Positions 3,174 to 18,936 are shown, counted from the first letter of the stretch. The stretch: 24,000 nt of DNA from Spirochaetia bacterium (GCA_963677595.1 OY782041.1:1960951-1984950); one strand, 5' to 3'. Notes: generated from the letters alone by a model not told the origin. Made by a program: numbers and translations.

Positions 3174-3174
3174 G

Positions 3175-3516: not shown

Positions 3517-3779
3517 TCGTTCTCTATATCATATTGGGGGTGCTGATGCTCATCGCCGCAGCTGCCGCCATCCAGATGAAACATATGACCTCAGCGATCA
3601 TCGCTGCCGGGGTCGTCTCCCTGGTGGGAAGCCTGCTCTTCCTGCTCGCGGGTGCACCTGATGTCGCCATGACAGAGGCCGCAATCGGTTCCGCACTGAC
3701 GACAGTCATCTTCCTCTTCGCCTGGTCACGTATTTCCGACCATGCCAAGGGTGATGACGATGAGGAGGGTAGGTCATGA
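3513..3779 (+). CDS. DUF4040 / MrpA-C-terminal-like small membrane subunit (MbxD/MbhD-like)
   Basis: GAPDVAMTEAAIGSALTTVIFL matches the APDVALTEAAVG signature. There are three TM helices and an ATGA start/stop overlap at 3513-3516. Confidence 0.8.
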   Translation: MIVLYIILGVLMLIAAAAAIQMKHMTSAIIAAGVVSLVGSLLFLLAGAPDVAMTEAAIGSALTTVIFLFAWSRISDHAKGDDDEEGRS

Positions 3780-4474: not shown

Positions 4475-4830
4475 TTACACAGATCCTCGTGATCCTCGGA
4501 GGCCTACTGATCTTAGTCGGGCTCTGGGGCATCCTAACTAGAAAACACCTGGTGAAGATGATCATCGGGTTCTCCGTCCTCGATACCGGTGTCCACCTGA
4601 TCATGGTAGGACTCGGGTACATCAAGGGTGGGACCGCACCGATCATTGACAGCGAGCTCCCGGCGGGAACGCTCGCCGGGAAGGTCGTGGACCCGGTCCC
4701 CTCAGCCCTGGTCCTGACAGCGATCGTCATCGGCGTGGCTGTCACCGCCCTGATGCTCAGCTATGCTGTCCGGTTATACAAGACCTATAAGACTACGTCG
4801 ATCGATGAGATAAAGGAGTTGAAATGGTAA
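4471..4830 (+). CDS. MrpC/MnhC / NuoK-like membrane subunit (MbxG-like)
   Basis: DPVPSALVLTAIVIGVAVTA matches the MnhC hallmark DPLPQALVLTAIVI. The real start is the ATG at 4471 (aa 71 of track ORF 4261..4830), preceded by GAGGAGGAA, with an ATGA overlap with the upstream gene. Confidence 0.85.
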   Translation: MITQILVILGGLLILVGLWGILTRKHLVKMIIGFSVLDTGVHLIMVGLGYIKGGTAPIIDSELPAGTLAGKVVDPVPSALVLTAIVIGVAVTALMLSYAVRLYKTYKTTSIDEIKELKW

Positions 4831-7800
4831 GCCCACTCTATATATTCGGTCTGGGACTGGGGATCGCCTTCCTGCTCCCGCTGTTCGAGAAGCTCTCGAA
4901 AGAGGCCCCGAAGTACATCACCCTGCTGCTTCTTGCCCTGTTCACGATCATCCCGGTCTCATGGATCGCCCAGATCCTTCCCTCCGGGATCATGAGCTCC
5001 CCGGTATCGGTCGGGACGATCGGCTTCGCGCCCCCGTTTGCCATAAGTCTGCAGATAGGCTTTGCAGAAGCCGTCACCCTGGCGGCAGTCAATGCCGCGG
5101 CGCTGCTGAGCGGCCTCTACCATACGGTCAGGAATGACGAGAACTGGAAGGGGAAGCACATCGTGCTCTTCCTCACCCTCATCGTCGGCGTGAACGGGCT
5201 CATCCTCACCAGGGACCTCTTCAACCTCTTCGTCTTCCTCGAGATCACCTCGATCTCGATGTATGCACTCATCGCGACGAATGCCCAGAAGCATGCCTAT
5301 GAGGCAGGGTTCAAGTACCTGATCGCAGGTTCACTCGCCTCCGCGAGCTACCTCATCGGGGTGATCTTCCTCTACCGGTATACCGGCACCCTCTATATCG
5401 ATGAGATCGCGGCCATGGATATCGCTTCCATGGCGGCAGGGAACCCGGGTCTCGTCATCGCCCTCTCGTTGCTGATGCTCGCGATGCTCGTGGAGCTCAA
5501 ACCGTTCCCCGCGAACGGCTGGGCGATTGATGCCTATGAGGCTTCCGACCCTGCCGTATCGGCCATGATCAGTGCCGTCGGTGCCACCGGCGTGCTCTTC
5601 TCCTTCCATAAGCTCCTTGAACTGTTCACCCCACAGATGGCCGGCGTCGCTGCCGCCTGCGGGATGCTCACCTTCATCTTCTCTCAGCTCATCGGCTTGA
5701 GGCAGGAACGGGTCAGGAGGATGCTCGGCTATTCATCAGTCGGGCAGATCGCCCTGGCAGTGACCGTCCTCTCGATCGGCAGGGTCCATCCGGATCTTGC
5801 TGTCCAGATGCAGCTTGCGGCTGCACTCCTGATCGGGACCCATATATTCAGCAAGGCCGGGCTCTTCTGGCTTGCCGATATCCAGGACCGGGACGGGTTC
5901 ACCTCCTTCAGGAAGAGCCCGCTCTTCATCGCTGTCATCGGTATCCTGGTTTCAGCGTTGGCAGGACTGCCTCCCTTCCCCTCTTTCTGGGCGAAGTGGA
6001 GCCTCCTCTCGGCACTTACCGGTAAGGGATACCTCTTCTATATGACACTCATCCTCCTAGGGTCTGTCTGTGAGGCAGGCTACCTCTTCAGGTGGTTCAC
6101 CCGCGGCCTGAAGGCTGCTGCCGACCCAGGCGATATCCACGCAGAACAGGTCCCGGAGGATGTCCCTGTCGCAGGACCCCAGACCGGGGTGATCAGCTCG
6201 ACGAGGGCCAGGGCCGCAGTCGGGGAGACTGCAGCCAGGAACGTGAAGACTGCAGTCCAGGAAGCAGAGGATGAGAAGAAAACACTTCACCCCTCTGTGC
6301 TCATGCCGCTGGTCTCCGCGCTGGTCGTCACTGCCGGCGGGCTGCTCTTCGGCTATAGGGCCCTTGAAGGTTCGGCCGAGGTCCTCCTGCTGCTGCCGGC
6401 AGCCGTGCTGCTGGTCGGCCTGCTGCTTGACCTGGTACGTATCCCGCTCAAGCTCCACCTCCTCGCTGTCCTGGCAGGGATCGCATACTATGCATACCAG
6501 GTCCTGCCGCAGCTGCAGGGGCTCAGGATGGTCTTCGGGGTCATCTTCCTCATCGGTTCTGCCGTACAGATGATCATCCTCTTCAACCGGAAAGGCGTCC
6601 AGTTTGGTCTGGTACCACTCATGACCGCCATGGTCTTCTCCCTCGGGAACCTCCTGCTCGCCTCGACGAGGTTGGGATTCTTCCTCTCCTGGGAACTCAT
6701 GACTGTGACCTCCTTCCTGCTGATCCTCCGTGGGAAATTATCATCAGGGGCCGGTTTCCGGTACCTGCTCTTCTCACTCGGGGGTGCCTACAGCATCCTG
6801 GCAGGGCTCATGCTCTTCCCGGGATTCGACTCGCTCCTGGGCGGGGGCGGCGTAAGCGGTGCAGTACCGCTGGCCGCAGTCATCCTGCTGGCCGTCGGGT
6901 TCCTCGTGAAGATGGGGGCTGCCGGGTTCCATATTTGGCTGCCTTCAGCCTATGCAGAGGCTGAGGATGAGACCTCGGCACTGCTCTCCTCGGTATTGAG
7001 CAAGGCATCGTTGTTCATGCTCTTCCTGACTGCCGCACTCTACCTGCAGCCGGTCTCACCGGTATCGTCAGTGCCGGTATCGACCCTGCTCGGCTGGGTC
7101 GGGACCATCACCCTGATCGCAGGTTCGTTCTTCGCCCTCTTCCAGGAGGATATAAAGTACACGCTTGCCTACTCCTCCATGGGACAGGTCGGCTACATGC
7201 TCCTAGGCTTCTCCCTCATGACTCACCTGGGCTGGACGGCGAGCCTCTACCTGGCAGTGACTCACCTCCTCTTCAAGGGGATGCTCTTCATCGCGGTCGC
7301 CGGGGTCATCCACCGGACACGTACCCGGATGATGTACCAGATGGGAGGGCTGATCAAGCGGATGCCGGTCAGCTTCCTCACCGTACTCATCGGGATCATC
7401 GCCCTCTCGGGCGTTCCCCCGCTTACCGGGTTCGGCGGAAAATGGCTGATCTATACGGCCCTGATCGAGAAGGGCTGGTACCTGCAGGCGGCGGTCGCGA
7501 TGTTCGCCTCCGGGATCGCCTTCCTCTACCTCTTCAGGCTCATACATGTCATCTTCCTCGGGCAGCTCAAGGACGAGCACCGGGAGGTGAAAGAGGCGCC
7601 GATCTGGTACCTCATACCGCAGGTCATCGGCATGGTCGCCATCATGGCGTTCTCCATGTTCCCGAACCTGCTGCTGCAGCCGCTGCAGGCTGCCGTGGCC
7701 CCGTTCTTCCCGGCATCGATCAGCTGGGACGGCTACACGGTCATTTCGACGCTGGGCTACTGGAACGGGAATGCCGTCATGTACGTGACCTTCGGGGTGT

Positions 7801-8126
7801 TCCTCATCCCGCTCGCATGGCTGCTGCTGGTACGCAGGAAGCATACCCGGCTGGTGAGCCAATTCAATATCGTGTATGCGGCAGAGCGGCCTGACAAGCC
7901 GGAGACGACCCATTTCGGGTACAACTTCTTCGCCCATTACCATGAGGCGCTCGGAAGCTTCCTCACCCCCTGGGCCACACGGTTCTGGGGCGGGGTGGAA
8001 TCGATCGTCCATGTCGCCGGTTCGGCCGTGCGGAGGATCTACTCCGGCAACGGGCAGACCTATGCCTTCTATATCCTGGCCTACTGTACAGTAGTCCTGA
8101 TCATCATTCGAGGAGGGGTACTGTAG
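4824..8126 (+). CDS. Fused double antiporter-like subunit (MrpD/NuoN-like module + linker + MrpA/NuoL-like module; MbxH-MbxH' fusion), 1100 aa
   Basis: Module 1 (aa 1-~428) has FVFLEITSISMYALI (TM5 Glu), LVELKPFPANGWAIDAYEASDPAVSA (TM7 Lys), LGYSSVGQIA and HIFSKAGLFW. A hydrophilic linker spans aa ~429-489 (nt ~6108-6290). Module 2 (aa ~490-1100) has FLSWELMTVTSFLLI, FLVKMGAAGFHIWLPSAYAEAEDETSALLSS, LAYSSMGQVGYM and HLLFKGMLFIAVAG. Confidence 0.85.
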   Translation: MVSPLYIFGLGLGIAFLLPLFEKLSKEAPKYITLLLLALFTIIPVSWIAQILPSGIMSSPVSVGTIGFAPPFAISLQIGFAEAVTLAAVNAAALLSGLYHTVRNDENWKGKHIVLFLTLIVGVNGLILTRDLFNLFVFLEITSISMYALIATNAQKHAYEAGFKYLIAGSLASASYLIGVIFLYRYTGTLYIDEIAAMDIASMAAGNPGLVIALSLLMLAMLVELKPFPANGWAIDAYEASDPAVSAMISAVGATGVLFSFHKLLELFTPQMAGVAAACGMLTFIFSQLIGLRQERVRRMLGYSSVGQIALAVTVLSIGRVHPDLAVQMQLAAALLIGTHIFSKAGLFWLADIQDRDGFTSFRKSPLFIAVIGILVSALAGLPPFPSFWAKWSLLSALTGKGYLFYMTLILLGSVCEAGYLFRWFTRGLKAAADPGDIHAEQVPEDVPVAGPQTGVISSTRARAAVGETAARNVKTAVQEAEDEKKTLHPSVLMPLVSALVVTAGGLLFGYRALEGSAEVLLLLPAAVLLVGLLLDLVRIPLKLHLLAVLAGIAYYAYQVLPQLQGLRMVFGVIFLIGSAVQMIILFNRKGVQFGLVPLMTAMVFSLGNLLLASTRLGFFLSWELMTVTSFLLILRGKLSSGAGFRYLLFSLGGAYSILAGLMLFPGFDSLLGGGGVSGAVPLAAVILLAVGFLVKMGAAGFHIWLPSAYAEAEDETSALLSSVLSKASLFMLFLTAALYLQPVSPVSSVPVSTLLGWVGTITLIAGSFFALFQEDIKYTLAYSSMGQVGYMLLGFSLMTHLGWTASLYLAVTHLLFKGMLFIAVAGVIHRTRTRMMYQMGGLIKRMPVSFLTVLIGIIALSGVPPLTGFGGKWLIYTALIEKGWYLQAAVAMFASGIAFLYLFRLIHVIFLGQLKDEHREVKEAPIWYLIPQVIGMVAIMAFSMFPNLLLQPLQAAVAPFFPASISWDGYTVISTLGYWNGNAVMYVTFGVFLIPLAWLLLVRRKHTRLVSQFNIVYAAERPDKPETTHFGYNFFAHYHEALGSFLTPWATRFWGGVESIVHVAGSAVRRIYSGNGQTYAFYILAYCTVVLIIIRGGVL

Positions 8127-9038
8127 ATGAGAGAGATAGCGATCAAGGCAGGGTATACCCTGATCTCCCTGTTCGTCATCACCAATTACGGCCTGCTCCT
8201 CATGGGGACGATGGCCAGGGTGCGCGCGAAGGTACAGGGTCGTATAGGACAGCCGGTGTGGCAGCCCTATATCGACATCATCAAGAACAATACGCGGAGG
8301 ACTGCGGTCTTCCACGGGGTCATGTTCTACCTCGGGCCGGTCTTCAGGCTGGCAGGGGGACTCGGGACCTACCTGTTCATCCCGGCAGTCTACGGCTCGC
8401 TGGTCTTCGCGAACTTCTCGTTCTCCGGGGACCTCCTGCTCGTCATGTACTTCATCTTCTTCGGGCAGCTGGGAATGGCCTTGGGTGCCGGGCAGAGCGG
8501 GCACCCCTACAGCCCGATCGGGGTAGCGAGAGGCCTGGCCCAGATGACAGCCTTCGAGGTACCGTTCGCGCTGGCGGTCATATCGATCGCGGCACAGTAC
8601 CAGACGCTCTCCATCACCGAGATCGTCGCCGTACAGCAGGGAGGCATCCTCAACTGGATAGCCTTCACCAACCCGCTGGCAATGGTGGCAGGGATGATCT
8701 CCTTCCTCGGGATGACGATGGGGAATCCGTTCAGTGTCGTCATCGCACCACAGGAGATACCGATCGGGCCGCCTACCGAGATGAACGCCGGCTTCCTCGG
8801 GATGCTTCAGACGAACCGTGCGATCTTCCAGGGCGCCAAGCTGGTGCTCTTCATGAACCTCTTCTTCGGAGGGGCGACGAACATACCGGTGATGGTCGTG
8901 AAGACCTTCCTGATCTACTTCTATACCGTGTTCGTCGGGGCTTCCTTCCCGAGGTTCAGGGTCGACCAGTCGATCAAGTTCTTCTTAGGGATACCGACAC
9001 TGATCGGTATCGCGGCAGTCGTGCTGCAGATGATCTAG
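8127..9038 (+). CDS. NuoH/ND1-like membrane subunit (MbxM/MbhM, HycD, CooK family)
   Basis: RVRAKVQGRIGQPVWQPYIDIIK matches the ER+..+Q.R.GP...QP.AD..K signature. About 8 TM helices. The ATG abuts the upstream TAG, with GGAGGGG at 8112-8118. Confidence 0.85.
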   Translation: MREIAIKAGYTLISLFVITNYGLLLMGTMARVRAKVQGRIGQPVWQPYIDIIKNNTRRTAVFHGVMFYLGPVFRLAGGLGTYLFIPAVYGSLVFANFSFSGDLLLVMYFIFFGQLGMALGAGQSGHPYSPIGVARGLAQMTAFEVPFALAVISIAAQYQTLSITEIVAVQQGGILNWIAFTNPLAMVAGMISFLGMTMGNPFSVVIAPQEIPIGPPTEMNAGFLGMLQTNRAIFQGAKLVLFMNLFFGGATNIPVMVVKTFLIYFYTVFVGASFPRFRVDQSIKFFLGIPTLIGIAAVVLQMI

Positions 9039-9052
9039 TCAGAGGGGTTAAG

Positions 9053-9709
9053 ATGAAAGATACAGATGATAAACAGGACCAGCTCGAGGAGATTGCCAAG
9101 GAGCTGAGACTGGCAAACAGCGGGCTCCCGGAGGATGAGAGAGCGTACTTCTGCGATGCGAGGCCCGAGAAGATCGATCCCTACCGGGGGATCCTCGAGA
9201 AGTTCGCCAACTGGGCGAGATCGGAATCATTGTGGATCCTCGGGTTCGGCACCGGTTGCGGGGCCATCGAGCTCAGGCCGCTGATGACCGCCCGCTATGA
9301 CATGTACCGATACGGGATCCAGCCGAGGCCGACACCGCGCCAGGCCGGGGTCTTCGTGATCGGCGGCTATGCCTCGGTGAAGACGATGAAGCGGATCGTG
9401 CGCAGCTATGAGCAGATGCAGGGACCGAAGTTCGTCCTTGGGCTCGGCAGCTGCACGATCAACGGCGGTATGTACTGGGACAGTTACAACACCGTCAACC
9501 GGCTCGACCACTATATCCCGGTGGATGTCTATATCGCCGGATGCATGCCGAGGCCTGAGGCCCTGCTCGCAGGTTTCCTCAAGCTCAAGAAGATGATCAA
9601 GTCCGGGCAGTGCGACGGCATGAACACGTATGCCGAGAATTTCGACTGGTACAAGCAGAACCAGAAACAGATCATCAAGCATTGGGAAATGCCTGATTAC
9701 AACTGGTAG
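9053..9709 (+). CDS. NuoB / hydrogenase-small-subunit-like Fe-S subunit (MbxJ-like) with only 3 of the 4 canonical cluster cysteines evident
   Basis: The real start is the ATG at 9053 (in frame with track ORF 8258..9709), preceded by GAGGGG (9042-9047). SLWILGFGTGCGAIE aligns to NuoB SLW...GLACCAIE. Also GLGSCTINGGMY (cf. GACA..GG) and VDVYIAGCMPRPEALL (cf. PGCPPRPEAL). Confidence 0.85.
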   Translation: MKDTDDKQDQLEEIAKELRLANSGLPEDERAYFCDARPEKIDPYRGILEKFANWARSESLWILGFGTGCGAIELRPLMTARYDMYRYGIQPRPTPRQAGVFVIGGYASVKTMKRIVRSYEQMQGPKFVLGLGSCTINGGMYWDSYNTVNRLDHYIPVDVYIAGCMPRPEALLAGFLKLKKMIKSGQCDGMNTYAENFDWYKQNQKQIIKHWEMPDYNW

Positions 9710-9722
9710 GAGGAGTGTGAGT

Positions 9723-10271
9723 ATGAGAGAACGATTGAGGGAAGTCTCAGGAAGATTTCCCGTGACCATACGCGAAGAACTCGCTCCTGACCGGGATGAC
9801 CTGCTCTTCGTCGAGACCGGGACCGAATATGCGGTCTCCTTCATCACCTGGCTGCAGGAACTCGAGGGGTATACCCACCTCGTCTTCTTCACGGCAGTCG
9901 ATTACATCGAGGAGGGGTACTTCCAGCTGACCTACATGCTGCAGAACTACGGGAAGAAGCATGACCTCTGCGTCCTCGTCCGCCTCGAGCGGGAGAAACC
10001 CGTCATGGAGTCGATCCACCACCTCTGGCCCCATGCTGCGACTTACCAGCAGGAGCTCTATGAGATGTACGGGATCGAGTTCCCCGGTTCACCGAGGATG
10101 TATGAGGACTTCGTCCTCGAGGGCTGGGACGACCTTCCCCCGATGCGACGGGATTTCGACACGAAAGCCTATTCAGAGGAGACCTATTTCCCGAGACCGG
10201 GAAGGAAGACACACGATACTGCTGCCTACATGAAGGAGCAGCTCTATCCCGGGGAGGCCGAGACATGGTAG
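9723..10271 (+). CDS. NuoC / 30-kDa-subunit-like protein (MbxK-like)
   Basis: The ATG at 9723 (aa 32 of track ORF 9630..10271) is preceded by GGAGGAG (9709-9715). HLVFFTAVDY...FQLTYMLQN...SIHHLWPHAATYQQELYEMYGIEFPGSP matches the NuoC pattern (.vD...f.vvY.L...S....A.W.ERE.YDM.GI.F.GHP). Confidence 0.8.
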   Translation: MRERLREVSGRFPVTIREELAPDRDDLLFVETGTEYAVSFITWLQELEGYTHLVFFTAVDYIEEGYFQLTYMLQNYGKKHDLCVLVRLEREKPVMESIHHLWPHAATYQQELYEMYGIEFPGSPRMYEDFVLEGWDDLPPMRRDFDTKAYSEETYFPRPGRKTHDTAAYMKEQLYPGEAETW

Positions 10272-11440
10272 GAGCCAAGCAGAAAGAGAGCGGGAAGTTC
10301 CCGCCTGTCGTTGACGGAAAGAGTCAGTATGACCTCTATTCAGGGAAGTACCTCAAGGTATGGCAGGGCCCGCAGCACCCCGGGATCACGGGGAACATGT
10401 CCCTCGAGCTCGTGACCTGCGGTGACCGTATCGTCGAGGCGAGGACCCATGTCGGGTACCTCCACCGGGGATTCGAGAAGCTCATGGAGCGACGGAAGTA
10501 TATCCAGTGCTTCCCCCTGGTCTGCAGGATCTGCGTGCCGGAGCCCGACTTCAACGAGTACCTCTTCGCAGAGTGTACCGAGGAGCTCGCGGGCATAGAG
10601 GTGCCCGAACGGGCGAAGTGGCTGCGTGCCATGAACCTCGAGATGGCACGGCTCACCTCGTTCCTCATGTGGCTCGGCGGACAGGCCGGGGCCTTCGGCA
10701 TGGGAACGCTCGGGCAGTGGACGGTGACGATGCGTGACTACATGCTCGACCTCTTCGAGGAGCTTACCGGTGGACGTATCTACCATATGTACATCATCCC
10801 CGGCGGGGTCCGCTCAGATGTGCCTGACGGCTATTTCGGCCGGGTCGAGGCTACCCTGCAGCAGATCGAGAAGGTCCTGAAGGACATCGAACTTGCGCTC
10901 TTCCATAACTCCGTCTTCAAGAAGCGGGCCAAAGGTCTCGGGTATATAGACCCGTCTATGGTGGAGCTCTACGGCATCACCGGCCCGAACGCCCGGGGCA
11001 GCGGTATCGCGAGGGATATCAGGAAGGATGTCGGCTACCTCGTCTATGACGAACTCGACTTCGAGCCGGTCACGGCGACTGACGGCGATGCCTATGCCAG
11101 GACCTGGGTCCGGTACCAGGAGATCCACCAGTCGATCGACCTGATCAGGCAGATGATGGCAAAGATGCCCGAAGGGCAGTTCTTCCAGAAGCTCCCCAAC
11201 GTCCTCCATTGGAAGATCCCGGCAGGCCAGACCTACCGTCGTGCGGAATGCACAAGAGGGGAGTACGGCTTCTACATGGTCTCCGACGGGTCGGAGTACC
11301 CGAGGAGGGTCGCCGTCAGGGGACCGAGCTACACCCATGCCGTCACGCTGATGGAACGGCTGGCAGTCGGGACGAACATCGCGGATACAGCAGGGTTGAT
11401 GGTATCGCTCCACACCTATCCGCCTGAGATAGAGAGGTAG
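10265..11440 (+). CDS. NuoD / group-4 hydrogenase large-subunit homologue lacking the [NiFe]-binding cysteine pairs (MbxL/Ehr-like)
   Basis: GPQHPGITGNM, GYLHRGFEKLMERRKY and IEVPERAKWLRAMNLEMARL are NuoD/large-subunit signatures. The L1 position reads VCRICVPEP (expected R.CG.C). The C-terminus reads SLHTYPPEIER (expected DPC..C..R/H). Confidence 0.85.
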   Translation: MVGAKQKESGKFPPVVDGKSQYDLYSGKYLKVWQGPQHPGITGNMSLELVTCGDRIVEARTHVGYLHRGFEKLMERRKYIQCFPLVCRICVPEPDFNEYLFAECTEELAGIEVPERAKWLRAMNLEMARLTSFLMWLGGQAGAFGMGTLGQWTVTMRDYMLDLFEELTGGRIYHMYIIPGGVRSDVPDGYFGRVEATLQQIEKVLKDIELALFHNSVFKKRAKGLGYIDPSMVELYGITGPNARGSGIARDIRKDVGYLVYDELDFEPVTATDGDAYARTWVRYQEIHQSIDLIRQMMAKMPEGQFFQKLPNVLHWKIPAGQTYRRAECTRGEYGFYMVSDGSEYPRRVAVRGPSYTHAVTLMERLAVGTNIADTAGLMVSLHTYPPEIER

Positions 11441-11443
11441 TAT

Positions 11444-13228
11444 ATGAGTCTGAAAGATATAGTTGCACCGTTCTCCGTCTGGAAGCGGGTACTGGAAAAA
11501 CCATACACAACGAAGAAGCCGATCGATGAGCGGCCGGGGGCAGCCCGGTACCGCGGGTTCCATATAAACGACGTGGACAAGTGCATCGGCTGCGGGACCT
11601 GTGAGGAGATCTGCCAGAATGCGGCGATCGACCTGGTCCCCGTATCGAAGACCAAGCACGGGGACTCCGGCCTGCGGCCGAAGATCGACTACGGCAGGTG
11701 CTGCTGGTGCGCGCTCTGCGTCGATATCTGCCCCACGGGATCGCTCGGGATGAGCAATGAGTACATCTGGGTCGAGAACGACCCGGAGGCCTACCGGTTC
11801 ATCCCCGGGCACGACGAGAAGAGCTGGAACGGCAGCGAACTCGGTTACCGCCGCGCTGAAGGCTATGACCTGCTCGAGGGCGAGCGGGTCGCCATGCCGA
11901 TGCTCCCCTTCGAGGAGAGCCAGAAGAGCTTCATCGAGATGGTCCTCGGATACTCGAAGGAACAGGCTCAGCGTGAGGCTGACCGGTGTATCGCCTGCGG
12001 CATCTGCGTCGCCACCTGCCCGGCTCACATGAACGTGCCTGACTACATCAAGGCCATACGTGACGATGACATGGAAGAGGGACTGCGGATCGTTTACCAG
12101 GCGAACCCGCTGCCTGCCTCCTGCGGGCGTGTCTGCTCCCATGCATGTGAGTATGTCTGTGCCGTGAAGCATAAGGGTGAGGCGCTCTCCATCCGCTGGC
12201 TCAAGCGGTACATCATCGACCAGATCTACAAGGACGACTATACGAAGATCCTTGACGAGATGCCGGAGGAGAACGGCAGGAAGGTCGCGATCATCGGATC
12301 GGGACCGGGGGGCTTGAGTGCCGCCTACTACCTGAGGCTCCTCGGGTACAGTGTGACGGTCTACGACGCGAACGAGAAAGCCGGTGGTATGCTTCGCTAC
12401 GGAATACCCGAGTACCGGCTTCCCTACGACCAGGTCGACAAGGATATCGTGTATCTCACGACGCTGGGCGTGAAGATCGAGCAGAATGTACGTATCGGGG
12501 TGGACAAACCCATGAAGGAGATCTATGAGCAGAACGACGCGGTCTTCTTCTCCACAGGATTGACTGACCCCTACGGTCTCGGTATTGCCGGTGAGGACCT
12601 CAAGGGTGTCCTCTCCGGTCTGGGCATGCTCGATGACGTGACGAACGGCAAGACCCCGGACATCGGGGGATCGGTGGTGGTCATCGGCGGTGGTAACGTC
12701 GCCATGGATGCTGCCAGGACGAGCCGGCGGTACAAGGCTGACGTGACCATCCTCTACCGGAGGCGCGAGGTCGATATGCCGGCCGATGTCGAGGAGATCG
12801 AGGAGTCCCAGGGAGAGGGCTGTACCCTGATCACCCAGGCGATCCCGCTGAGGATCGAGAAGGGGGACAAGACGAGGTTGAAGCTCTATTGGGGCAAGGC
12901 AGAGATGGTAGCCGACAGCAAGGGTGGCAGGCCGAGGCCGGTGCTCATCGAGGGTTCGGAAGAGCTCATCGAATGTGACACCATCATACCCGCGATCGGG
13001 CAGGCGGCAGACTACTCGTTCCTCCCTGATGATATTGCCAAGTCGGTCACCTTCACCCGGGGCTATGTCGATGTCAACGAGTTCTACCAGACGGGTGACA
13101 AGAAGATATTCGCCGGAGGTGATATCGCAAACCCGAAGCGGGATGCCATCAGCGCCATCGCCAACGGCCACTCCGCAGCGAAGGGGATCGATATCTACCT
13201 GAACGATTTCGCTGAAGGGGAAGAATAG
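11444..13228 (+). CDS. Fusion protein: NuoI/MbxN-like 2x[4Fe-4S] ferredoxin domain + GltD/NfnB/SudA-like Fe-S, FAD, NAD(P)H oxidoreductase domain (594 aa)
   Basis: The N-terminus has KPYTTKKP...RYRGFH, C47-x2-C-x2-C-x3-C57 and C86-x2-C-x2-C-x3-C96-P. The C-terminal module has C182-x2-C-x2-C-x3-C192-P, C227-x3-C231-x3-C235-x3-C239 within NPLPASCGRVCSHACEYVC, VAIIGSGPGGLSAAYYL, GGMLRYGIPEYRLP, VVVIGGGNVAMDAARTSRR, ILYRRR and IFAGGD. Confidence 0.85.
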   Translation: MSLKDIVAPFSVWKRVLEKPYTTKKPIDERPGAARYRGFHINDVDKCIGCGTCEEICQNAAIDLVPVSKTKHGDSGLRPKIDYGRCCWCALCVDICPTGSLGMSNEYIWVENDPEAYRFIPGHDEKSWNGSELGYRRAEGYDLLEGERVAMPMLPFEESQKSFIEMVLGYSKEQAQREADRCIACGICVATCPAHMNVPDYIKAIRDDDMEEGLRIVYQANPLPASCGRVCSHACEYVCAVKHKGEALSIRWLKRYIIDQIYKDDYTKILDEMPEENGRKVAIIGSGPGGLSAAYYLRLLGYSVTVYDANEKAGGMLRYGIPEYRLPYDQVDKDIVYLTTLGVKIEQNVRIGVDKPMKEIYEQNDAVFFSTGLTDPYGLGIAGEDLKGVLSGLGMLDDVTNGKTPDIGGSVVVIGGGNVAMDAARTSRRYKADVTILYRRREVDMPADVEEIEESQGEGCTLITQAIPLRIEKGDKTRLKLYWGKAEMVADSKGGRPRPVLIEGSEELIECDTIIPAIGQAADYSFLPDDIAKSVTFTRGYVDVNEFYQTGDKKIFAGGDIANPKRDAISAIANGHSAAKGIDIYLNDFAEGEE

Positions 13229-13232
13229 TACC

Positions 13233-13249
13233 AGAACCGGTTCTATAAT
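13233..13249. promoter_or_regulatory. Perfect 12-bp palindrome AGAACCGGTTCT abutting a TATAAT/TATA-like element upstream of the ArsR-family gene (candidate operator + promoter)
   Basis: AGAACC|GGTTCT spans 13233-13244 and TATAAT spans 13244-13249. This lies 50 nt upstream of the ATG at 13299, with GGTGGTGA (13283-13290) as RBS. Confidence 0.4.
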
Positions 13250-13298
13250 GCGGCATATGCTGATATACTTCCCCGGAACAAGGTGGTGAGAGAAGAAG

Positions 13299-13646
13299 AT
13301 GGATTTGTTTGAGATGCACTGTGAGGAGACTATACTGGAGTTGCGGGAACGGTTCTCAAGTTCCCGGTGTGAGCTGGTGGAGCGCATGATGTCGATCATG
13401 TCCAACCCCATCCGGTTTCACATCCTCTGTGCGCTCAACCATGAACCGTTCACCGTTTCCGAGCTGGTGGACCTCACCGACTCGCAGCCTTCGAACGTAT
13501 CACAGCAGCTGAAGATGATGACCCTCGCCGGGTACCTGGACAAGGAACGGCGGGGGAAACAGATCTACTACCGGCTCATCGAGGATAAGGTGTCACGCAT
13601 CATCAGCCTGCTCGAGGAGCTCTTCCCCTTTGACCAGCCAGAATAG
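13299..13646 (+). CDS. ArsR/SmtB-family winged-HTH transcriptional regulator
   Basis: PIRFHILCALNHEPFTVSELVDLTDSQPSNVSQQLKMMTLAGYLDKERRGKQIYYRL is the canonical ArsR HTH-wing core. There is a ~35-aa N-terminal extension. Cysteines are at aa 8, 24 and 44, with no CxxC or CVC metal motif. Confidence 0.85.
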   Translation: MDLFEMHCEETILELRERFSSSRCELVERMMSIMSNPIRFHILCALNHEPFTVSELVDLTDSQPSNVSQQLKMMTLAGYLDKERRGKQIYYRLIEDKVSRIISLLEELFPFDQPE

Positions 13647-13747
13647 CGGCTTCGCTTACCTGAAACCTCACGAACAGACGCCTCACAAAAACAGCATACG
13701 ACAGGAATACCATTGCGGAGTGGGGATTCCTGGGGTATAGTAGTAGT

Positions 13748-13766
13748 ATGATGTTACATCATGTAA
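13748..13766. promoter_or_regulatory. Two overlapping perfect palindromes in the AT-rich leader of the stressosome-type operon
   Basis: ATGATGT-T-ACATCAT spans 13748-13762 and TTACAT-C-ATGTAA spans 13754-13766, followed by a repeated TGTAA. They lie about 100 nt upstream of the ATG at 13864. Confidence 0.3.
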
Positions 13767-13863
13767 TGTAAGGTTTTCAGGCTATACACTACAGTTCTGT
13801 TCTGATCCGACTCTGCCTGATGATCTTTTCTGAGGGAATGTTCTGAAACCAGGGGGAGGAATC

Positions 13864-14673
13864 ATGGCAAAGACCTATCATGAGAAAGAGATCGATGAGA
13901 GATTGAAACTGCAGGTGCTCGATCAGATACCTACGCCTGTCATCGCGATCAATATGGAGTATGAGCTCATCTATGTGAATGATGCCGCCACGAAGCTGCG
14001 CGGCAGATCCAAGGAGAACCTCCTGGGGTATCACTGCTATGAGATGTTCGGGACACCTCACTGTAATACCCCGAGCTGCTGCATGCGCAAAGCCATGGAG
14101 ACCGGGGAGATGTTCTCCGCACGGAACGAGATCCCCCTTGATGAGGGTGGATCCATCCCCATCATGTATTATACCGTACCTCTCAAGGATGATGATGGGA
14201 ATGTCATCGGCGGGCTAGAGTATATCGTCGATATCACGGACCAGGTCTCGTATGAGGCACGCATCAAGGAACAGAGCAAACAGATGTCCAAGATGTCGAC
14301 TCCGACGATCAAGCTGTGGGAAGGGGTGCTGGTGCTGCCCGTGATCGGGGTGGTCGACTCTCTCAGAGCTCAGCTCATGATGGAGAGCATGCTCGACAAG
14401 ATCGTTGAGACTTCGGCAAAAGTCATCCTCCTCGACATCCAGGGGGTGGCTGCCGTTGATACTGCCATCGCGAACCACCTGATCAAGATCACGAAAGCCA
14501 CGAAGCTGATGGGCTGTGAATGCATCCTGTCCGGCATTTCTCCGGCGGTGGCCCAGACGATCATCCAGCTCGGTATCGACATGATAGACTCTATCAAGAC
14601 CATGTCCACGCTGAGCGATGGACTGGCCGAAGCCTTCAAGATCCTGAACATGCGGGTCGAGAAGATAGACTGA
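13864..14673 (+). CDS. RsbR-like stressosome scaffold/sensor: N-terminal Cys-rich PAS domain + C-terminal STAS domain
   Basis: The STAS core STPTIKLWEGVLVLPVIGVVDS...VILLDIQGVAAVDTAIANHLIK...LSGISPAVAQTIIQLGID aligns with B. subtilis RsbRA (..DITGVPVVDT.., ..IRPEIAQTIV..), including both phospho-Thr positions (T200, T232). The N-terminus is PAS-like (IPTPVIAINMEYELIYVNDAA...LLG). RBS GGGGGAGG lies before the ATG. Confidence 0.8.
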   Translation: MAKTYHEKEIDERLKLQVLDQIPTPVIAINMEYELIYVNDAATKLRGRSKENLLGYHCYEMFGTPHCNTPSCCMRKAMETGEMFSARNEIPLDEGGSIPIMYYTVPLKDDDGNVIGGLEYIVDITDQVSYEARIKEQSKQMSKMSTPTIKLWEGVLVLPVIGVVDSLRAQLMMESMLDKIVETSAKVILLDIQGVAAVDTAIANHLIKITKATKLMGCECILSGISPAVAQTIIQLGIDMIDSIKTMSTLSDGLAEAFKILNMRVEKID

Positions 14674-14683
14674 GCAGTTGTCT

Positions 14684-15067
14684 ATGGGGATGGTGGGAGG
14701 TTCGCTCAGGTCATCGATCACAGAGATCAATAATAATCTGATCATCACTCTTGCCGCTGAGATGGATGATGAGGATCTTGCGTCCTTCAGCGAATCGGTG
14801 ACGTTATTCAGCCATGGTCGTAAGCTCAATGGGGCTGTCATAGATTTCTCTATGGTGCAGGTACTGGACAGCTATACGCTGGAGGTCCTGCTGTCGTTGT
14901 CGAAGCATATCACGCTGCTCGGAGCAGAGGTCGTCTGGGTCGGGTTGAAGCCAGGAGTGGTCATCGGGCTGATAGACCTGAACATCGATCTTGACCAACT
15001 CAAGTTCAGGACTGCACTGAACCTTGACAGGGGGCTGGTGCTGCTTCAAAAGGGGCAGAATTCTTGA
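14684..15067 (+). CDS. RsbS-like single-domain STAS protein (stressosome antagonist)
   Basis: A small STAS protein: NLIITLAAEMDDEDL...GAVIDFSMVQVLDSYTLEVLL, with the conserved phosphorylatable Ser in the LDS context (S63, nt 14870-14872). The track ORF starts at TTG 14678; ATG codons lie at 14684 and 14690. Confidence 0.75.
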   Translation: MGMVGGSLRSSITEINNNLIITLAAEMDDEDLASFSESVTLFSHGRKLNGAVIDFSMVQVLDSYTLEVLLSLSKHITLLGAEVVWVGLKPGVVIGLIDLNIDLDQLKFRTALNLDRGLVLLQKGQNS

Positions 15068-15069
15068 CT

Positions 15070-15549
15070 ATGGCTGTGATGCAGGGAGCCCGTATGAGAG
15101 TGGAACAGGATCGGGCAGGTTTGATAGTACTCGAGACCTGCAGGGTGGATATAACGCATCCCTCCGACACGGGGCACGTGATCCCCCTCTGCAGGCTGAT
15201 GGCCAGGAAGGCGGGCTTTTCTGAGCGAGATGAGTTCCTCCTTGCCACGGTCGCATCAGAGCTGACGACGAACATCGTCAGGTATGCCGGCAAAGGGGAA
15301 CTGAACATCAGGATCCTCAGGAATCCCGCCACACGCCTGATAGGGCTCGAACTCTATGCAGAGGATCATGGTCCGGGCATCGAGAATGTGGAACTTGCCA
15401 TGACGGATAACTACTCGACAACGAGGAACAGCATCGGCTCAGGGCTGCCGGGGGTGAAGCGGATCATGGATGAGTTCTCGCTTGAGACAGCTGTCGGGGA
15501 GGGTGTCAGGATCAGGGCGGTGAAGTGGGGCAGACATGCAGAGGGTTGA
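15070..15549 (+). CDS. RsbT-like serine protein kinase (GHKL/HATPase_c, anti-sigma-factor-kinase type)
   Basis: N-box ELTTNIVRYAGKG, G1 EDHGPGI and G2 GSGLPGVKR, at ~160 aa as for RsbT/SpoIIAB-type kinases. The start is ambiguous: TTG at 15064 overlaps the RsbS stop, or ATG at 15070. Confidence 0.8.
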   Translation: MAVMQGARMRVEQDRAGLIVLETCRVDITHPSDTGHVIPLCRLMARKAGFSERDEFLLATVASELTTNIVRYAGKGELNIRILRNPATRLIGLELYAEDHGPGIENVELAMTDNYSTTRNSIGSGLPGVKRIMDEFSLETAVGEGVRIRAVKWGRHAEG

Positions 15550-16189
15550 GTACGGTACCGCAGTCCAGCCGTTGATCGGGGGGATCGAAGACAGCGGAGA
15601 CATCGCTGTGGTCAGGGAGGATACGGGCTCTCTCTATTTTGCCCTGGTTGATGTGCTCGGCCATGGGAGTGAGGCAGGGGAGGTCGCTGCGCAAGCCAGC
15701 CAGTTCCTGGGGTGTCACTGCGACGAGAGTCTGGTTGACCAGCTGAACGGGCTGCATGAGCACCTGAACGGGACAAGGGGTGCTGTTGCTGCGCTGTGCA
15801 GGTTGAATGTCGAAGACGGGACGCTGCAGCTGGCGGGTATAGGGAATATTGCCGTGCGGGTCATCGGTAGAGATTCATTTCAATTCGTACTTCGAGACGG
15901 GATCATCGGATACGGCCGGATCAAAGCCCTGCTCCAGGAGCGAACGATCTCACCGGGAGAATATATCGTCCTCCATTCAGACGGGATACGTTCCTTCCTC
16001 CGGGCAGAGAACTGTTTCGCTGCGATCAGGGGAAGTGCACATACCGTTGCTGACAATATCCTCAAGGAGTGTGCCTCTGGTGATGATGATGCTTCCTGTA
16101 TTGTAGTGAGATATACGGGAGCAGATCCTATGGCCTCTTCATCCTATGTGCCGTTTACCGGCAGATTGTCCGGGAGGTCAGGTTCATGA
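15536..16189 (+). CDS. RsbX-like PP2C/SpoIIE-family phosphatase
   Basis: SGDIAVV...ALVDVLGHGSEAG, TRGAVAA, GIGNIA, VLHSDGI and DDASCIVV parallel RsbX (GD..., DGLGSGS.A, RGATA, GN, HTDG, DD). It overlaps the RsbT-like 3' end by 14 nt. Confidence 0.8.
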   Translation: MQRVEYGTAVQPLIGGIEDSGDIAVVREDTGSLYFALVDVLGHGSEAGEVAAQASQFLGCHCDESLVDQLNGLHEHLNGTRGAVAALCRLNVEDGTLQLAGIGNIAVRVIGRDSFQFVLRDGIIGYGRIKALLQERTISPGEYIVLHSDGIRSFLRAENCFAAIRGSAHTVADNILKECASGDDDASCIVVRYTGADPMASSSYVPFTGRLSGRSGS

Positions 16190-18936
16190 ATCTGGGTAGA
16201 TTGCAGCTCTTTGATTCACAGTCACTGATCACTGCCCGCAGCCGGATCCATTCAGCGGCAAAGAGACTGGGCTGTCGGGAGATCTTCTGTATCAGGCTGG
16301 AGACCCTCTATTCTGAACTGTTCAGGAAGTGCCTCCTGTTTGGAGATGATCTGGAACTCAACTTCTCCCTGGCTGTATGCCAGGGTAGGCAGGTCGCGGA
16401 GATCGTGATCACCGGGTTCAGCGCCCCGCCTGATCTCGCATCCCTGCCAAAGCACCGTCTGGCACACGTAACTGCAGAGACGCTGGCTGAAGGTAGTGCC
16501 ATTCGATGCTCGACACCCCTTGATGAGGAGGTCAGCGGATGGGACGGCAACTCTTCCGATGAGAGACTGCAGGCTGTTCGCGACATCCTTGCGGAGAAGA
16601 GCAGGAACGAACTGCTGAAGGATATACTCCATAAGAACGAGGAACTCGAGCACAGCAGGACGCTGATCCATTCCGTCCTGGAGAATATCGACTCCATCGT
16701 CTATGCCAAGGACCTGGAAGGCCGGTATACCCTGGTGAACCATGACTGGGAAGCTGCCAGGGGCTTCTCGCAGGCCCAGGTGATCGGACGTCGCGATATC
16801 GACATCTTCAGGGATGGGGAGAGTGAGTCGAGCAAGAGGCTGCGAAATGACAACCATACCCAGGATCTGCAGGTCATGGTTGATGCTGTGATGTTCAAGG
16901 CTGAAGAGGTGATCGTGACACCGGAAGGTGCTGCCAAGCAGCTGCTTACTGTCAAGATCCCGCTTATCCGGCAGGATGAGGTCTACGGGATCAGCAGCAT
17001 ATCGATCGATATAACCGAACAGAAGGAGCTCTATGCCGAGTTAGAGGAGGCCCGGAAGATCGCCGAGGATGCTGCTGAGACGAAGTCAGCCTTCCTGGCT
17101 AACATGAGCCATGAGATCCGAACCCCGATGAACGCCATTATCGGTATGGCCCACCTGGTAGGGGAGACAGAGCTGAATGATAGGCAGCAGGGGTATGTGG
17201 AGAATATCCAGAAGTCGGGGGAACTGCTCCTTGGGATCATCAACGACATCCTCGACTACTCCAAGATCGAGGCTGGTAAGCTCGATATCGAAGAGACGGT
17301 GTTCAGCCTGTCTGAGGTCCTTCGCACCCTCAGGACCATCATAGACCTGAAATGCGAGACGAAGGGCTTAAGGCTCGCCTTCGAGATCGGGAAGCAGATA
17401 CCGGTCTATCTCATCGGGGACCCGCTGCGTATCGGGCAGATCCTGATCAACTACGCGAACAATGCGGTGAAGTTCACGCAAGAGGGTGGGGTGACCGTGC
17501 GGATATCCCTTGTGGGGAGACAGGATACCATCTATACGCTGCGTTTCGAGGTAGTCGACACCGGTATCGGTCTCACGGAGGAGCAGATGGGGAAACTCTT
17601 CTCCTCCTTCTCCCAGGCCGATGTCTCCATCACCCGACAGTACGGCGGTTCCGGACTCGGGCTCTCCATCTCGAAGAATCTCGCGCAGATGATGCACGGG
17701 ACCGTTGGAGTCTCTTCCGTCTATGGGGAAGGCAGTACGTTCTGGTTCACGGTTCCGCTGCATATCGATGAGGGGCACTATGGGGAAGGAGAGCAGCCTG
17801 AAGACCTTGATGAGACGTTCCAGAGGGAACTCGACCATCCTACCATAGGCAGGGGCAATCAGGAGAACGGTCCTGTTCCCGTGTTCAGGGAAGCCTCCGT
17901 CCTGCTCGTTGAGGATAACGAACTGAACATCCAGGTGGCAGAGGGGATGCTGGAGAAGTGGGGCATCAAGCCTGCTGTCGCGAGGAATGGCGAGATAGCC
18001 CTCAGCAAGGTGAAAGATACTCGCTATGACCTTATCTTCATGGATATGCAGATGCCGGTGATGGACGGGATCACGGCCAGTCACGAGATCCGGAAGGTCT
18101 TCACGATCGATGAACTCCCTATCATCGCCATGACAGCGAATGCCATGGCCGAGGACATCGAGAAGTGTGCACAAGCCGGGATGAACGGCCATATCGCGAA
18201 ACCGATCGAGCCGGACAAGCTCCTTGGTACCCTGCAGCAATACCTGAAATCGTACGAGACCGTAGAAGAACGTCCTGACGATATAGCAGGACAGAAGGAC
18301 ATGGAGAAACTCTTCATACCCGGCCTGAGGGCCGAAGCCGCTGTGGATCGGCTCGGTGGGAGTTGGGCTACCTATCGGGACCTGCTCGAGCTCTTCCTCT
18401 CTGAGAATAAGGATACAGAAGCGCAGCTCACCGGATTGCTTGAGTCCGGGCAGTTCCAGGAGGCCCAGCTGCTTGCCCATACCGTCAAGGGGACTGCCGG
18501 GGCGATCGGTGCAGTCCAGACTGCGGATCGTGCCAAAGATGTAGAGACTGCCCTGAAGAACCAGGAAGATCCTGGTCGCATTGCAGATCTTGTCTCAGCC
18601 CTGGCAGGGGAGCTGAACCCGCTGCTTGGACTGCTTCGATCCGAGTTCGCTGCGGGGGTTGACGTCACTGGTCAGTCAACATCTGGAGTAGGGGCTGTGC
18701 TGACACAAGAGAGCCTGGGCCTGCTTTATGACCTTGGTGATGTACTGAAGAAGCACAACCCGAAACGGTCGAAAGAGGCAGTGAACCGCTGTCTGGAACA
18801 AGCCTGGCCTAATGAGATCGCAGAAGGACTGTCGGAACTGGAGAAGATGGTAAAGGGCTTTCGCTACAAGGATGCCATAGTATTGATAGAGAGACTGATC
18901 AGCTCTGCTGAAGAGAACCGAAGGAGTGATACATGA
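16186..18936 (+). CDS. Soluble hybrid histidine kinase: unassigned N-terminal domain - PAS - HisKA - HATPase_c - REC - HPt
   Basis: H-box FLANMSHEIRTPMNAIIG (H309, nt 17110-17112); N/G boxes INYANNAVKF, VVDTGIGL, GGSGLGLSIS; REC VLLVEDNELN...DLIFMDMQMPVMDG...AKP (D620); HPt AHTVKGTAGAIGA (H765). No TM helices are evident. ATGA overlap with the RsbX-like stop. Confidence 0.9.
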   Translation: MNLGRLQLFDSQSLITARSRIHSAAKRLGCREIFCIRLETLYSELFRKCLLFGDDLELNFSLAVCQGRQVAEIVITGFSAPPDLASLPKHRLAHVTAETLAEGSAIRCSTPLDEEVSGWDGNSSDERLQAVRDILAEKSRNELLKDILHKNEELEHSRTLIHSVLENIDSIVYAKDLEGRYTLVNHDWEAARGFSQAQVIGRRDIDIFRDGESESSKRLRNDNHTQDLQVMVDAVMFKAEEVIVTPEGAAKQLLTVKIPLIRQDEVYGISSISIDITEQKELYAELEEARKIAEDAAETKSAFLANMSHEIRTPMNAIIGMAHLVGETELNDRQQGYVENIQKSGELLLGIINDILDYSKIEAGKLDIEETVFSLSEVLRTLRTIIDLKCETKGLRLAFEIGKQIPVYLIGDPLRIGQILINYANNAVKFTQEGGVTVRISLVGRQDTIYTLRFEVVDTGIGLTEEQMGKLFSSFSQADVSITRQYGGSGLGLSISKNLAQMMHGTVGVSSVYGEGSTFWFTVPLHIDEGHYGEGEQPEDLDETFQRELDHPTIGRGNQENGPVPVFREASVLLVEDNELNIQVAEGMLEKWGIKPAVARNGEIALSKVKDTRYDLIFMDMQMPVMDGITASHEIRKVFTIDELPIIAMTANAMAEDIEKCAQAGMNGHIAKPIEPDKLLGTLQQYLKSYETVEERPDDIAGQKDMEKLFIPGLRAEAAVDRLGGSWATYRDLLELFLSENKDTEAQLTGLLESGQFQEAQLLAHTVKGTAGAIGAVQTADRAKDVETALKNQEDPGRIADLVSALAGELNPLLGLLRSEFAAGVDVTGQSTSGVGAVLTQESLGLLYDLGDVLKKHNPKRSKEAVNRCLEQAWPNEIAEGLSELEKMVKGFRYKDAIVLIERLISSAEENRRSDT

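Follow-up and report, generated by a model that had tools for sequence, protein, structure and literature searches.

In a 24,000-nucleotide stretch of DNA from a Spirochaetia bacterium (GCA_963677595.1, OY782041.1:1960951-1984950), which we call the window, we found a gene that joins an MbsN-like subunit to an NfnB/GltD-like flavoprotein. This mbsN-gltD/nfnB-like fusion gene (11444-13228, + strand) encodes a protein of 594 amino acids plus the stop codon. It stands last in a compact operon of 12 genes on the + strand (2396-13228), and the core subunits encoded by this operon resemble those of the archaeal MBS complex. We propose that the fusion protein is the electron-entry subunit of a bacterial MBS/MBX-type complex that is fed by NAD(P)H, reduces sulfane sulfur and translocates ions. 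Taken as a whole, we give this reading an even chance, and its separate parts differ in strength as described below.

Translation of 11444-13228 gave one unbroken frame of 594 amino acids with its stop codon at 13226-13228. A preliminary description of this DNA had reported the same uninterrupted open reading frame (ORF), and all of the motifs that it listed were found at the residues it gave. In the N-terminal half these are RYRGFH (amino acids 35-40) and two iron-sulfur (Fe-S) motifs, C47xxC50xxC53xxxC57 and C86xxC89xxC92xxxC96P. The C-terminal half contains two further Fe-S motifs, C182xxC185xxC188xxxC192P and C227GRVC231SHAC235EYVC239, followed by GSGPGG (amino acids 285-290), GGMLRYGIPEYRLP (amino acids 314-327), GGGNVAMD (amino acids 415-422), ILYRRR (amino acids 436-441), and FAGGD (amino acids 556-560).

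The first 126 amino acids (11444-11821, + strand) form a NuoI/MbsN-type domain with two predicted [4Fe-4S] clusters. The top PDB sequence match for amino acids 8-126 is MbsN (6u8y_N, 8.5e-24), which agrees with the preliminary description of this part as a NuoI-type connecting subunit. NuoI models of NCBIfam match amino acids 5-126 (best 1.6e-29) with scores below their cut-offs (79 versus 113 and 103 versus 243), and Pfam recognizes a 4Fe-4S dicluster domain at amino acids 43-100 (about 1e-10). Beyond the NuoI part, the remainder of the protein is matched by GltD-family models of NCBIfam. It is comprised of a Fer4_20 domain with two all-cysteine [4Fe-4S] sites (amino acids 161-263, 11924-12232, + strand; Pfam 3.6e-29) followed by Rossmann domains for flavin adenine dinucleotide (FAD) and NAD(P)H with YRRR at 438-441 (amino acids 280-567, 12281-13144, + strand; Pfam Pyr_redox_2 1.5e-30). 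When the C-terminal half was searched against PDB sequences, the large subunit of NfnI came first (5jca_L, amino acids 147-587, 4e-78) and was followed by NfnB (4ylf_B, amino acids 157-587, 3e-77) and GltD (6s6s_G, 6e-58). The features of the GltD/NfnB/SudA family, which are the Fer4_20 domain, the FAD Rossmann domain, and the NAD(P)H Rossmann domain with its arginine pair, are all present. The Pfam and PDB matches and the invariant motifs described below bear out the earlier view that this half is a complete module of the GltD/NfnB/SudA type. Because the MbsN match ends at amino acid 126 and the NfnI match begins at amino acid 147, the conserved connector between the halves is only about 20 residues long (amino acids 127-146, 11822-11881, + strand); it contains invariant residues and is ordered in the structure model.

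Alignment of 79 homologues showed that all 16 Fe-S cysteines are invariant, including all eight in the Fer4_20 domain. Also invariant are the glycine motifs for FAD and NAD(P)H, R439-R441, and the connector residues W128, G134, Y135, and Y141. These motifs and their conservation are far beyond what is expected by chance. The AlphaFold2 model of the fusion protein that we built from this alignment had a mean predicted local distance difference test (pLDDT) score of 88.1 and a predicted template modelling (pTM) score of 0.83, with pLDDT values of 86-92 in the connector region; it was poorly defined only at about the first 30 residues. The model fits a single rigid body, with an N-terminus that would pack on other subunits. 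Comparison of the model with the PDB using Foldseek returned the NfnI large subunit (5jca_L) first, with a template modelling (TM) score of 0.88 on the target, a root-mean-square deviation of 2.5 Å, and 37% identity, followed by Xfn, NfnB, GltD, and DPD. No solved chain in the PDB spanned the whole fusion protein in this comparison (query TM score 0.70 at most). Two homologues (P0083 and P0085) have low-complexity inserts of 35-60 residues located exactly at the connector (alignment columns ~139-198), and these inserts therefore mark the domain boundary.

To survey the fusion we scanned one genome per species with an alignment of the N-terminal 200 amino acids, covering the NuoI-like domain, the connector, and the start of the Fer4_20 domain. 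The fusion was found in at least 276 genomes, each standing for one species, and these belong to more than ten bacterial phyla. From the at least 276 encoding genomes we kept 80 loci as a synteny sample and searched these by tblastn with the proteins of the window. The sample includes Spirochaetota, Cloacimonadota, Bacteroidota, Chlorobiota, Acidobacteriota, Calditrichota, Fermentibacteria, Marinimicrobia, Delongbacteria, and Alpha-, Beta-, and Gammaproteobacteria. Cultured isolates among the carriers include Prolixibacter denitrificans, Tropicimonas isoalkanivorans, Aliiruegeria sabulilitoris, and Sinisalibacter lacisalsi, and Marispirochaeta aestuarii is a further cultured carrier. An MbsL-like gene is located directly upstream of the fusion and on the same strand in 80 of 80 loci, with a median gap of 9 nucleotides. 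The order H/H'-M-J-K-L was found in 61 of 61 loci, and at least four of the six small Mrp-like subunits were found in 52 of 52. The preliminary description had made its reading depend on a steady linkage to complex-I-like and Mrp genes, and the fusion lies in such an operon in all 80 loci. Two far more divergent fused representatives, found by an exhaustive profile search of a 50% representative library, occupy the same operon slot. A database search with the full-length protein yielded thousands of relatives, of which the top 120 are nearly all 590-600 amino acids long with 99-100% coverage. The N-terminal 160 amino acids used alone as a query returned mostly fragments at contig ends and are a poor guide to the proportions of fused and unfused proteins. 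Thiospirochaeta perfilievii (locus L081, CP035807) contains the same MBS-type operon with an unfused N subunit of 138 amino acids. The fusion is thus a variant inside the bacterial MBS family. In the T. perfilievii operon MrpE comes after N rather than first, and this operon offers a natural comparison with the fused form.

The preliminary description had also raised the concern that an assembly error or frameshift artificially joined two genes. We found nothing in favor of this. A few database proteins, such as P0084, resemble the GltD half only. However, the fusion was full length in one alignment in 74 of 74 independent loci with enough sequence, isolates included, the connector residues are invariant, and P0084, which we considered as a possible split gene, proved to have a miscalled start within a fusion ORF of 592 amino acids. 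This conservation across independent loci refutes an artefact, the chance of which is negligible, and we regard the fusion as virtually certain to be real.

We then examined what kind of complex the fusion belongs to. Every core subunit encoded in the operon matches MBS (6U8Y) better than any chain of complex I, NDH-1, Mrp, FHL, or MBH, and all of the Mrp-derived members of the membrane arm (A, B, C, D, E, and G) are present along with the two pumps H and H'. In MBS, cysteines C28, C93, and C123 of MbsJ ligate the proximal [4Fe-4S] cluster, C25 is too distant to do so, and the free iron of this cluster is the proposed site of polysulfide reduction (PMC7684303). The J subunit of the window aligns with MbsJ without gaps (GFGTGCGAIE versus AFCTGCGGIE) and, according to this alignment, has the equivalents of C28, C93, and C123 as predicted ligands. 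Because the position of C25 is occupied by glycine, only three cysteines are available for the proximal cluster, and the loop is of the shortened kind seen in MBS. The motif G[FYW]G[TS]GCG and the other two cysteine motifs of J were kept in 76 of 76 readable loci. The first NuoB motif of J holds a single cysteine and is not of the tandem-cysteine N2 type.

MbsL keeps two vestigial cysteines, C85 and C385, that are not catalytic (PMC7684303). In the window the equivalent of C85 is kept (VCRICVPEPD) and tyrosine occupies the position of C385 (HTYPPEIER); among relatives these positions vary between cysteine and alanine and between tyrosine and cysteine. Such variation is what would be expected of non-catalytic residues and is consistent with the mutagenesis of MBS. 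A motif check and alignment of the L subunit revealed no C-terminal L2 CxxC pair for NiFe and a degenerate L1 motif. This ruled out a [NiFe] hydrogenase such as MBH, FHL, or Ech, and the match to MbhL is far weaker. Alignment with complex I 49-kDa subunits placed threonine and valine at the positions of Nqo4 His38 and Tyr87, which ligate the quinone head group (residues named in PMC7684303), and the active-site motifs of L and J likewise ruled out a canonical quinone reductase. Together, the three-cysteine J cluster, the lack of NiFe ligands, and the lack of the quinone histidine and tyrosine indicate that the complex is of the MBS type, and the fusion protein is very probably one of its subunits. 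The complex-I-like, Mrp-coupled host that had been described before was therefore borne out, but it is specifically MBS/MBX-type rather than generic.

These features lead us to propose the following mechanism. The MbsN subunit, which is normally small and accepts electrons from ferredoxin, has been joined head-to-tail to a complete iron-sulfur flavoprotein of the NfnB/GltD type. NAD(P)H, probably NADPH, would reduce the FAD of the fusion protein. Single electrons would then pass from FAD through the two all-cysteine [4Fe-4S] clusters of the Fer4_20 domain to the two [4Fe-4S] clusters of the MbsN-like domain, and from there to the three-cysteine proximal [4Fe-4S] cluster of the MbsJ-like subunit. 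The free iron of this cluster, like that in the MBS of Pyrococcus, would reduce sulfane sulfur, in the form of polysulfide or persulfide, in the pocket between J, L, and M. This reduction would drive the translocation of H+ or Na+ through MbsM, the fused MbsH-H' pumps, and the Mrp-like subunits. It is likely that NAD(P)(H) is the cytoplasmic redox partner of the complex, and the chance that sulfane sulfur is the other substrate is somewhat short of even. We infer the transfer of electrons between the domains, its forward direction, and the pumping of ions.

The first steps of this scheme are modelled on the GltD/NfnB family, in which NADPH reduces FAD and electrons then pass singly over two [4Fe-4S] clusters to a partner docked at the distal one (PMC6405883). 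In NfnB, a conserved pair of arginines binds NADP+ at its 2'-phosphate, and ferredoxin docks at the distal cluster (PMC6405883). The fusion protein has an invariant YRRR. Since the cluster motifs of the fusion protein are all-cysteine and there is no NfnA-like partner, we expect a simple wire from NAD(P)H to the Fe-S clusters rather than bifurcation. An electron-bifurcating, Nfn-like function was considered unlikely on these same grounds. The standard potentials are -320 mV for NAD(P)H and about -260 mV for polysulfide/HS-. Electron transfer from NAD(P)H to polysulfide would yield about 12 kJ/mol, which is small and of the same order as the reaction of MBH, which pumps. The energies available per two electrons are about 12 kJ/mol for MBH and about 42 kJ/mol for MBS (PMC8165549). 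The proposed mechanism also fits with the induction of the mbx operon of T. maritima by S0 and thiosulfate (PMC9431562) and with the finding that many carriers of the fusion live in sulfidic settings or store sulfur.

Several points weigh against this proposal. The driving force is small for two pump modules and an Mrp module. Aerobic or facultative Rhodobacteraceae and sulfur oxidizers are among the hosts, and sulfur respiration is not an obvious lifestyle for them. The accessory genes (rubrerythrin-like, DHO_dh-like, and CBS) depend on the lineage and therefore the function may not be uniform. The varying vestigial cysteines of the L subunit are no positive evidence for sulfur chemistry, and the suggested preference of the fusion protein for NADPH comes from a motif only. 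Our search of the available literature and the PDB found no biochemistry or solved structure of the fused complex.

We weighed four other functions for the complex. The first is the original model for MBX, in which the complex is a ferredoxin:NAD(P)+ oxidoreductase with electrons flowing from ferredoxin through the MbsN clusters to the GltD module and with Rnf-like pumping. MBX was originally proposed to make NADPH, modules of the NfnB type are reversible, and the driving force from ferredoxin to NADP+ exceeds that from NAD(P)H to sulfur. However, on this route electrons would never reach the J cluster or the J/L/M pocket, both of which are conserved in every locus, and the Pyrococcus complex that underlies the model has now been shown to be a sulfane reductase (PMC7684303). 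In addition, the site at the distal cluster where ferredoxin docks in NfnB (PMC6405883) is presumably occupied by the fused MbsN domain. We consider this function unlikely.

A second possibility, and a distinctly unlikely one, is that the complex runs in reverse or reversibly, such that the ion-motive force lifts electrons of sulfide or polysulfide from the proximal cluster to NAD(P)+. Carriers of the fusion include Thiodiazotropha, Sedimenticola, Thioalkalivibrio, Thiosymbion, Gallionellaceae, and Chlorobiota. In Endoriftia an 'Mrp-Mbx', for which no direction is stated, is co-expressed with genes of the reverse tricarboxylic acid cycle and of sulfur globules. With a gap of only about 60 mV between the standard potentials, reversal would be energetically easy. 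By contrast, there is no experimental hint that any MBS oxidizes sulfide, the Spirochaetes to which the host of the window belongs are typically fermentative, and many fermenters share the same architecture. In its fullest form, the fused complex would be a reversible sulfide/polysulfide:NAD(P)+ oxidoreductase that in fermenters passes electrons from NAD(P)H to sulfur while pumping ions; this is equally doubtful. If it were true, sulfur-oxidizing autotrophs such as Thiodiazotropha, Sedimenticola, Thioalkalivibrio, Endoriftia-like symbionts, and Chlorobiota would run the complex backwards, with the gradient lifting electrons of sulfide by ~60 mV. Such a route to NAD(P)H would be far cheaper than reverse electron flow via complex I, and the complex I superfamily would have gained, in the flavoprotein, a fourth 'N-module' of independent recruitment.

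It is improbable that the complex is an alternative complex I, that is, an NAD(P)H:quinone oxidoreductase in which a GltD-type module stands in for the NuoEFG N-module. The overall architecture is complex-I-like, the chamber of MBS is as wide as that of complex I (PMC7684303), and many carriers among the Proteobacteria and Bacteroidota have quinones, as is generally known. Nonetheless, threonine and valine replace the two quinone ligands, the proximal cluster has three cysteines rather than the four ligands of a tandem-cysteine N2, and all subunits resemble MBS much more closely than they do complex I. More improbable still is a soluble side reaction, in which the flavoprotein half serves a rubrerythrin-like peroxidase or a DHO_dh-like flavoenzyme rather than the membrane complex: of 58 loci, 20 have a rubrerythrin-family gene after the fusion and 13 have a DHO_dh-like gene there, and in P0245 and a subfamily of ~750 amino acids the rubrerythrin-family sequence is fused to the C-terminus, but neither partner adjoins the operon of the window, these accessory genes are lineage-specific, and electron exchange with the complex is the better fit for a protein that is covalently joined to MbsN through a conserved connector and is confidently modelled as one body.

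These neighbors and other variants of the operon were seen in particular lineages. The rubrerythrin-family gene encodes ~155 amino acids and adjoins the fusion on its 3' side, for example at 7083-7559 in locus L002 and 11816-12274 in locus L033. A large Spirochaete subfamily (P0245 and P0387-P0444) contains fusions of ~750 amino acids with a C-terminal extension. In P0245 Pfam identifies this extension as Rubrerythrin, making it a triple fusion of MbsN, GltD, and a rubrerythrin-like domain. The DHO_dh-family gene directly 3' of the fusion encodes 326 amino acids in locus L020 (11814-12794) and was seen in 12 other loci that are mostly from Bacteroidota. The arrangement is reminiscent of the PreT-PreA pair of dihydropyrimidine dehydrogenase, a hint of an additional FMN subunit in those lineages. 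In the divergent locus L084, NfnA-like (DHODB_Fe-S_bind) and NfnB-like genes are located right after the fusion (11850-14101) and a rubrerythrin gene is located before mrpE. The divergent locus L085 has NuoC-like and NuoD-like sequences joined as one protein of 511 amino acids (8456-9991). MbsH and MbsH' form one polypeptide in the window and in the close relative L083 (1092 amino acids); P. furiosus MBS and loci L081, L084, and L085 have one gene for each.

All genes of the operon are on the + strand, and each was identified from Pfam or PDB matches. The first six encode small Mrp-like subunits. These are an mbsA-like gene (MrpE/MnhE; 2396-2920, Pfam MNHE 1.6e-37), an mbsB-like gene (MrpF; 2913-3173, MrpF_PhaF 6e-16), an mbsC-like gene (MrpG; 3175-3516, PhaG_MnhG_YufB 3e-23), an mbsD-like gene (3513-3779, MbhD 5.6e-19), an mbsE-like gene with MbhE and MnhB domains (3776-4474, MnhB 4e-23 and MbhE 1e-9), and an mbsG-like gene (NuoK/MrpC-like; 4471-4830, Oxidored_q2 6e-27). 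We set the start of the mbsG-like gene at an internal ATG of an ORF at 4261-4830, and a GAGGAGG that resembles a ribosome-binding site is located upstream of this start. The fused mbsH-mbsH' gene (4824-8126) encodes 1100 amino acids with two antiporter-like pump modules, seen by Pfam as two stretches of Proton_antipo_M. Its best PDB matches are 6u8y_H for amino acids 7-319 (1e-58) and 6u8y_X, which is MbsH', for amino acids 558-1095 (7e-56). Next is an mbsM-like gene (8127-9038, NADHdh 1e-43) for the NuoH-like membrane anchor of the peripheral arm, with 6u8y_M as the best PDB match (4e-41, versus 1e-13 for MbhM). The mbsJ-like, NuoB-like gene (9053-9709) encodes the motifs GTGCG, GSC, and GCMPRP and matches 6u8y_J at 2.4e-67, with the next best PDB match at 1e-38. 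The mbsK-like, NuoC-like gene (about 9723-10271, Complex1_30kDa 4e-24) has an uncertain start, with its ORF opening at 9630 and 9723 being the first ATG past the mbsJ stop codon. The mbsL-like gene (10265-11440), related to NuoD and NiFe large subunits, matches 6u8y_L at 3e-98, compared with 2.5e-60 or weaker for complex I 49-kDa subunits and 4e-43 for MbhL. The order of the genes in the window, A-B-C-D-E-G-H-H'-M-J-K-L-N, is presumably also that of the P. furiosus mbs operon.

A promoter-like TTGACA-18 nt-TATAAT (2326-2355, + strand) matches the sigma-70 consensus at 12 of 12 positions and lies ~40 nucleotides before the first gene of the operon. This call is a consensus match only; the region holds no more of these sites in total than expected from shuffled sequence. 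There is no clear intrinsic terminator after the fusion gene. An antisense ORF of 865 amino acids (10814-13411, - strand) covers the whole fusion and part of mbsL. This ORF has no sign of being a gene and is probably a by-product of the codon bias of the coding strand.

Upstream of the operon in the window there is an ORF of 397 amino acids (1085-2278, + strand) with no Pfam match, preceded by a tryptophanase-like fragment (30-1013). An ArsR-family (HTH_5) gene (13299-13646, + strand) is located 70 nucleotides past the fusion and is common only to the closest relatives, L001 and L083. It could regulate the operon in response to sulfur or redox state. We rejected the idea that it is a persulfide sensor like SurR, SqrR, or BigR, as it occurs only in the closest relatives and is without the typical cysteine pair. 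By eye, the following region (13864-20045, + strand) resembles a stressosome set comprised of RsbR-like PAS/STAS, RsbS-like STAS, RsbT-like kinase, and PP2C-like phosphatase genes. Beyond it are genes for a hybrid histidine kinase of 916 amino acids and a response regulator with an HD-GYP-like domain.

If the proposed mechanism is true, a widespread complex ties the NAD(P)H pool to an ion-translocating, sulfur-reducing site of the MBS type without ferredoxin. It would be a case of convergent attachment, by gene fusion, of a pyridine-nucleotide dehydrogenase to the NuoI-NuoB chain in parallel to NuoEFG. It would also give a function to the bacterial 'mbx-like' operons of fermenters from sulfidic sediments and of sulfur-oxidizing symbionts, and provide culturable mesophiles for the study of MBS catalysis by a three-cysteine [4Fe-4S] cluster beyond the hyperthermophilic archaea.

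The closest characterized system is the MBS of P. furiosus (formerly MBX, PDB 6U8Y), which has the same set of subunits and provides the best PDB match of every core subunit. The two differ in several ways. MbsN of P. furiosus is free-standing, 208 amino acids long, and fed by ferredoxin, whereas the N subunit of the window has an extra module of ~450 amino acids with FAD, NAD(P)H, and two [4Fe-4S] sites. MBS and MBX complexes are defined in part by a stand-alone N subunit, and the fusion of the window departs from this. P. furiosus has separate H and H' in place of the one polypeptide of the window, and C25 of its MbsJ and C385 of its MbsL correspond to glycine and tyrosine in the window. Lastly, P. 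furiosus is a hyperthermophilic archaeon and the host of the window is a mesophilic-type bacterium.

The C-terminal half shares its fold, two [4Fe-4S] sites, Rossmann folds, and arginine pair with the NfnI large subunit, NfnB, SudA, and GltD (5JCA_L, 4YLF_B, 6S6S). The cluster motifs of NfnB have the consensus RCx2Cx4Cx3CPV and GRVCPQExQCx3C, the latter with a glutamate (PMC6405883), whereas those of the window are RCx2Cx2Cx3CP and CGRVCx3Cx3C and are all-cysteine. We found no NfnA-like gene in the window and no NfnA or GltB partner in the operon. Unlike in these relatives, the partner in the window is covalently attached and part of a membrane complex. NuoEFG with NADH, FpoF with F420H2, and the ferredoxin sites of NDH-1, MBH, and MBS follow the same logic, in which a soluble input feeds the NuoI-NuoB chain. 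Compared to NuoEFG, the module of the window has an unrelated fold and cofactor (GltD-type FAD, not the FMN of NuoF) and is joined to NuoI by fusion, not via NuoG. AegA and YgfT (PRK12769 and PRK12809) have the same dicluster plus GltD-like layout and match the fusion protein at 4e-78 and 1e-62. The scores are far below cut-off (263 versus 1003), and, in distinction to AegA and YgfT, the N-terminus of the window protein is MbsN/NuoI-like and its gene lies inside an MBS operon.

Related operons have been described before. Degli Esposti in 2015 (PMC4758237) reported that in Mrp-containing mbx-like operons of Thermotoga and Proteobacteria the place of NuoI is taken by a gltD-related flavoprotein, and that rubrerythrin often comes next. 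Our analysis of the neighborhoods of fusion loci reproduces this operon pattern, rubrerythrin included. Compared by description, that account speaks of 'substitution' rather than a NuoI-GltD fusion and reads the flavoprotein as an exit that reduces NAD(P)+; it also predates the reassignment of MBX as a sulfane reductase. Spring in 2010 (PMC3035292) described an MBX cluster with a sudA-like NAD(P)H module in Desulfurococcaceae and proposed a complex linked to NADPH dehydrogenase. There, again by description, the sudA-like gene is separate and stands in place of fdhA of an FHL-like cluster. The family model PRK13984 (NF010590, 'putative oxidoreductase', equivalog) spans amino acids 2-588 of the fusion protein (3e-212, model positions 7-608 of 611). 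The window protein scores 706 bits against it, which is under the cut-off of 946, and related fused proteins score 375-909 bits.

The architecture is thus not new, having been described by Degli Esposti in 2015 and in PRK13984, with archaeal relatives as separate genes in Spring 2010, and there may be a prior description of the fusion that is more explicit than those found here. The present result is an annotation with good support, together with a hypothesis that can be tested, and does not amount to the discovery of a new kind of system. What is new relative to these accounts is that the fused complexes are of the MBS type throughout, that the three-cysteine cluster, which was defined in 2020, is universal among them, and that the fusion and its synteny are invariant across a very wide span of bacteria.

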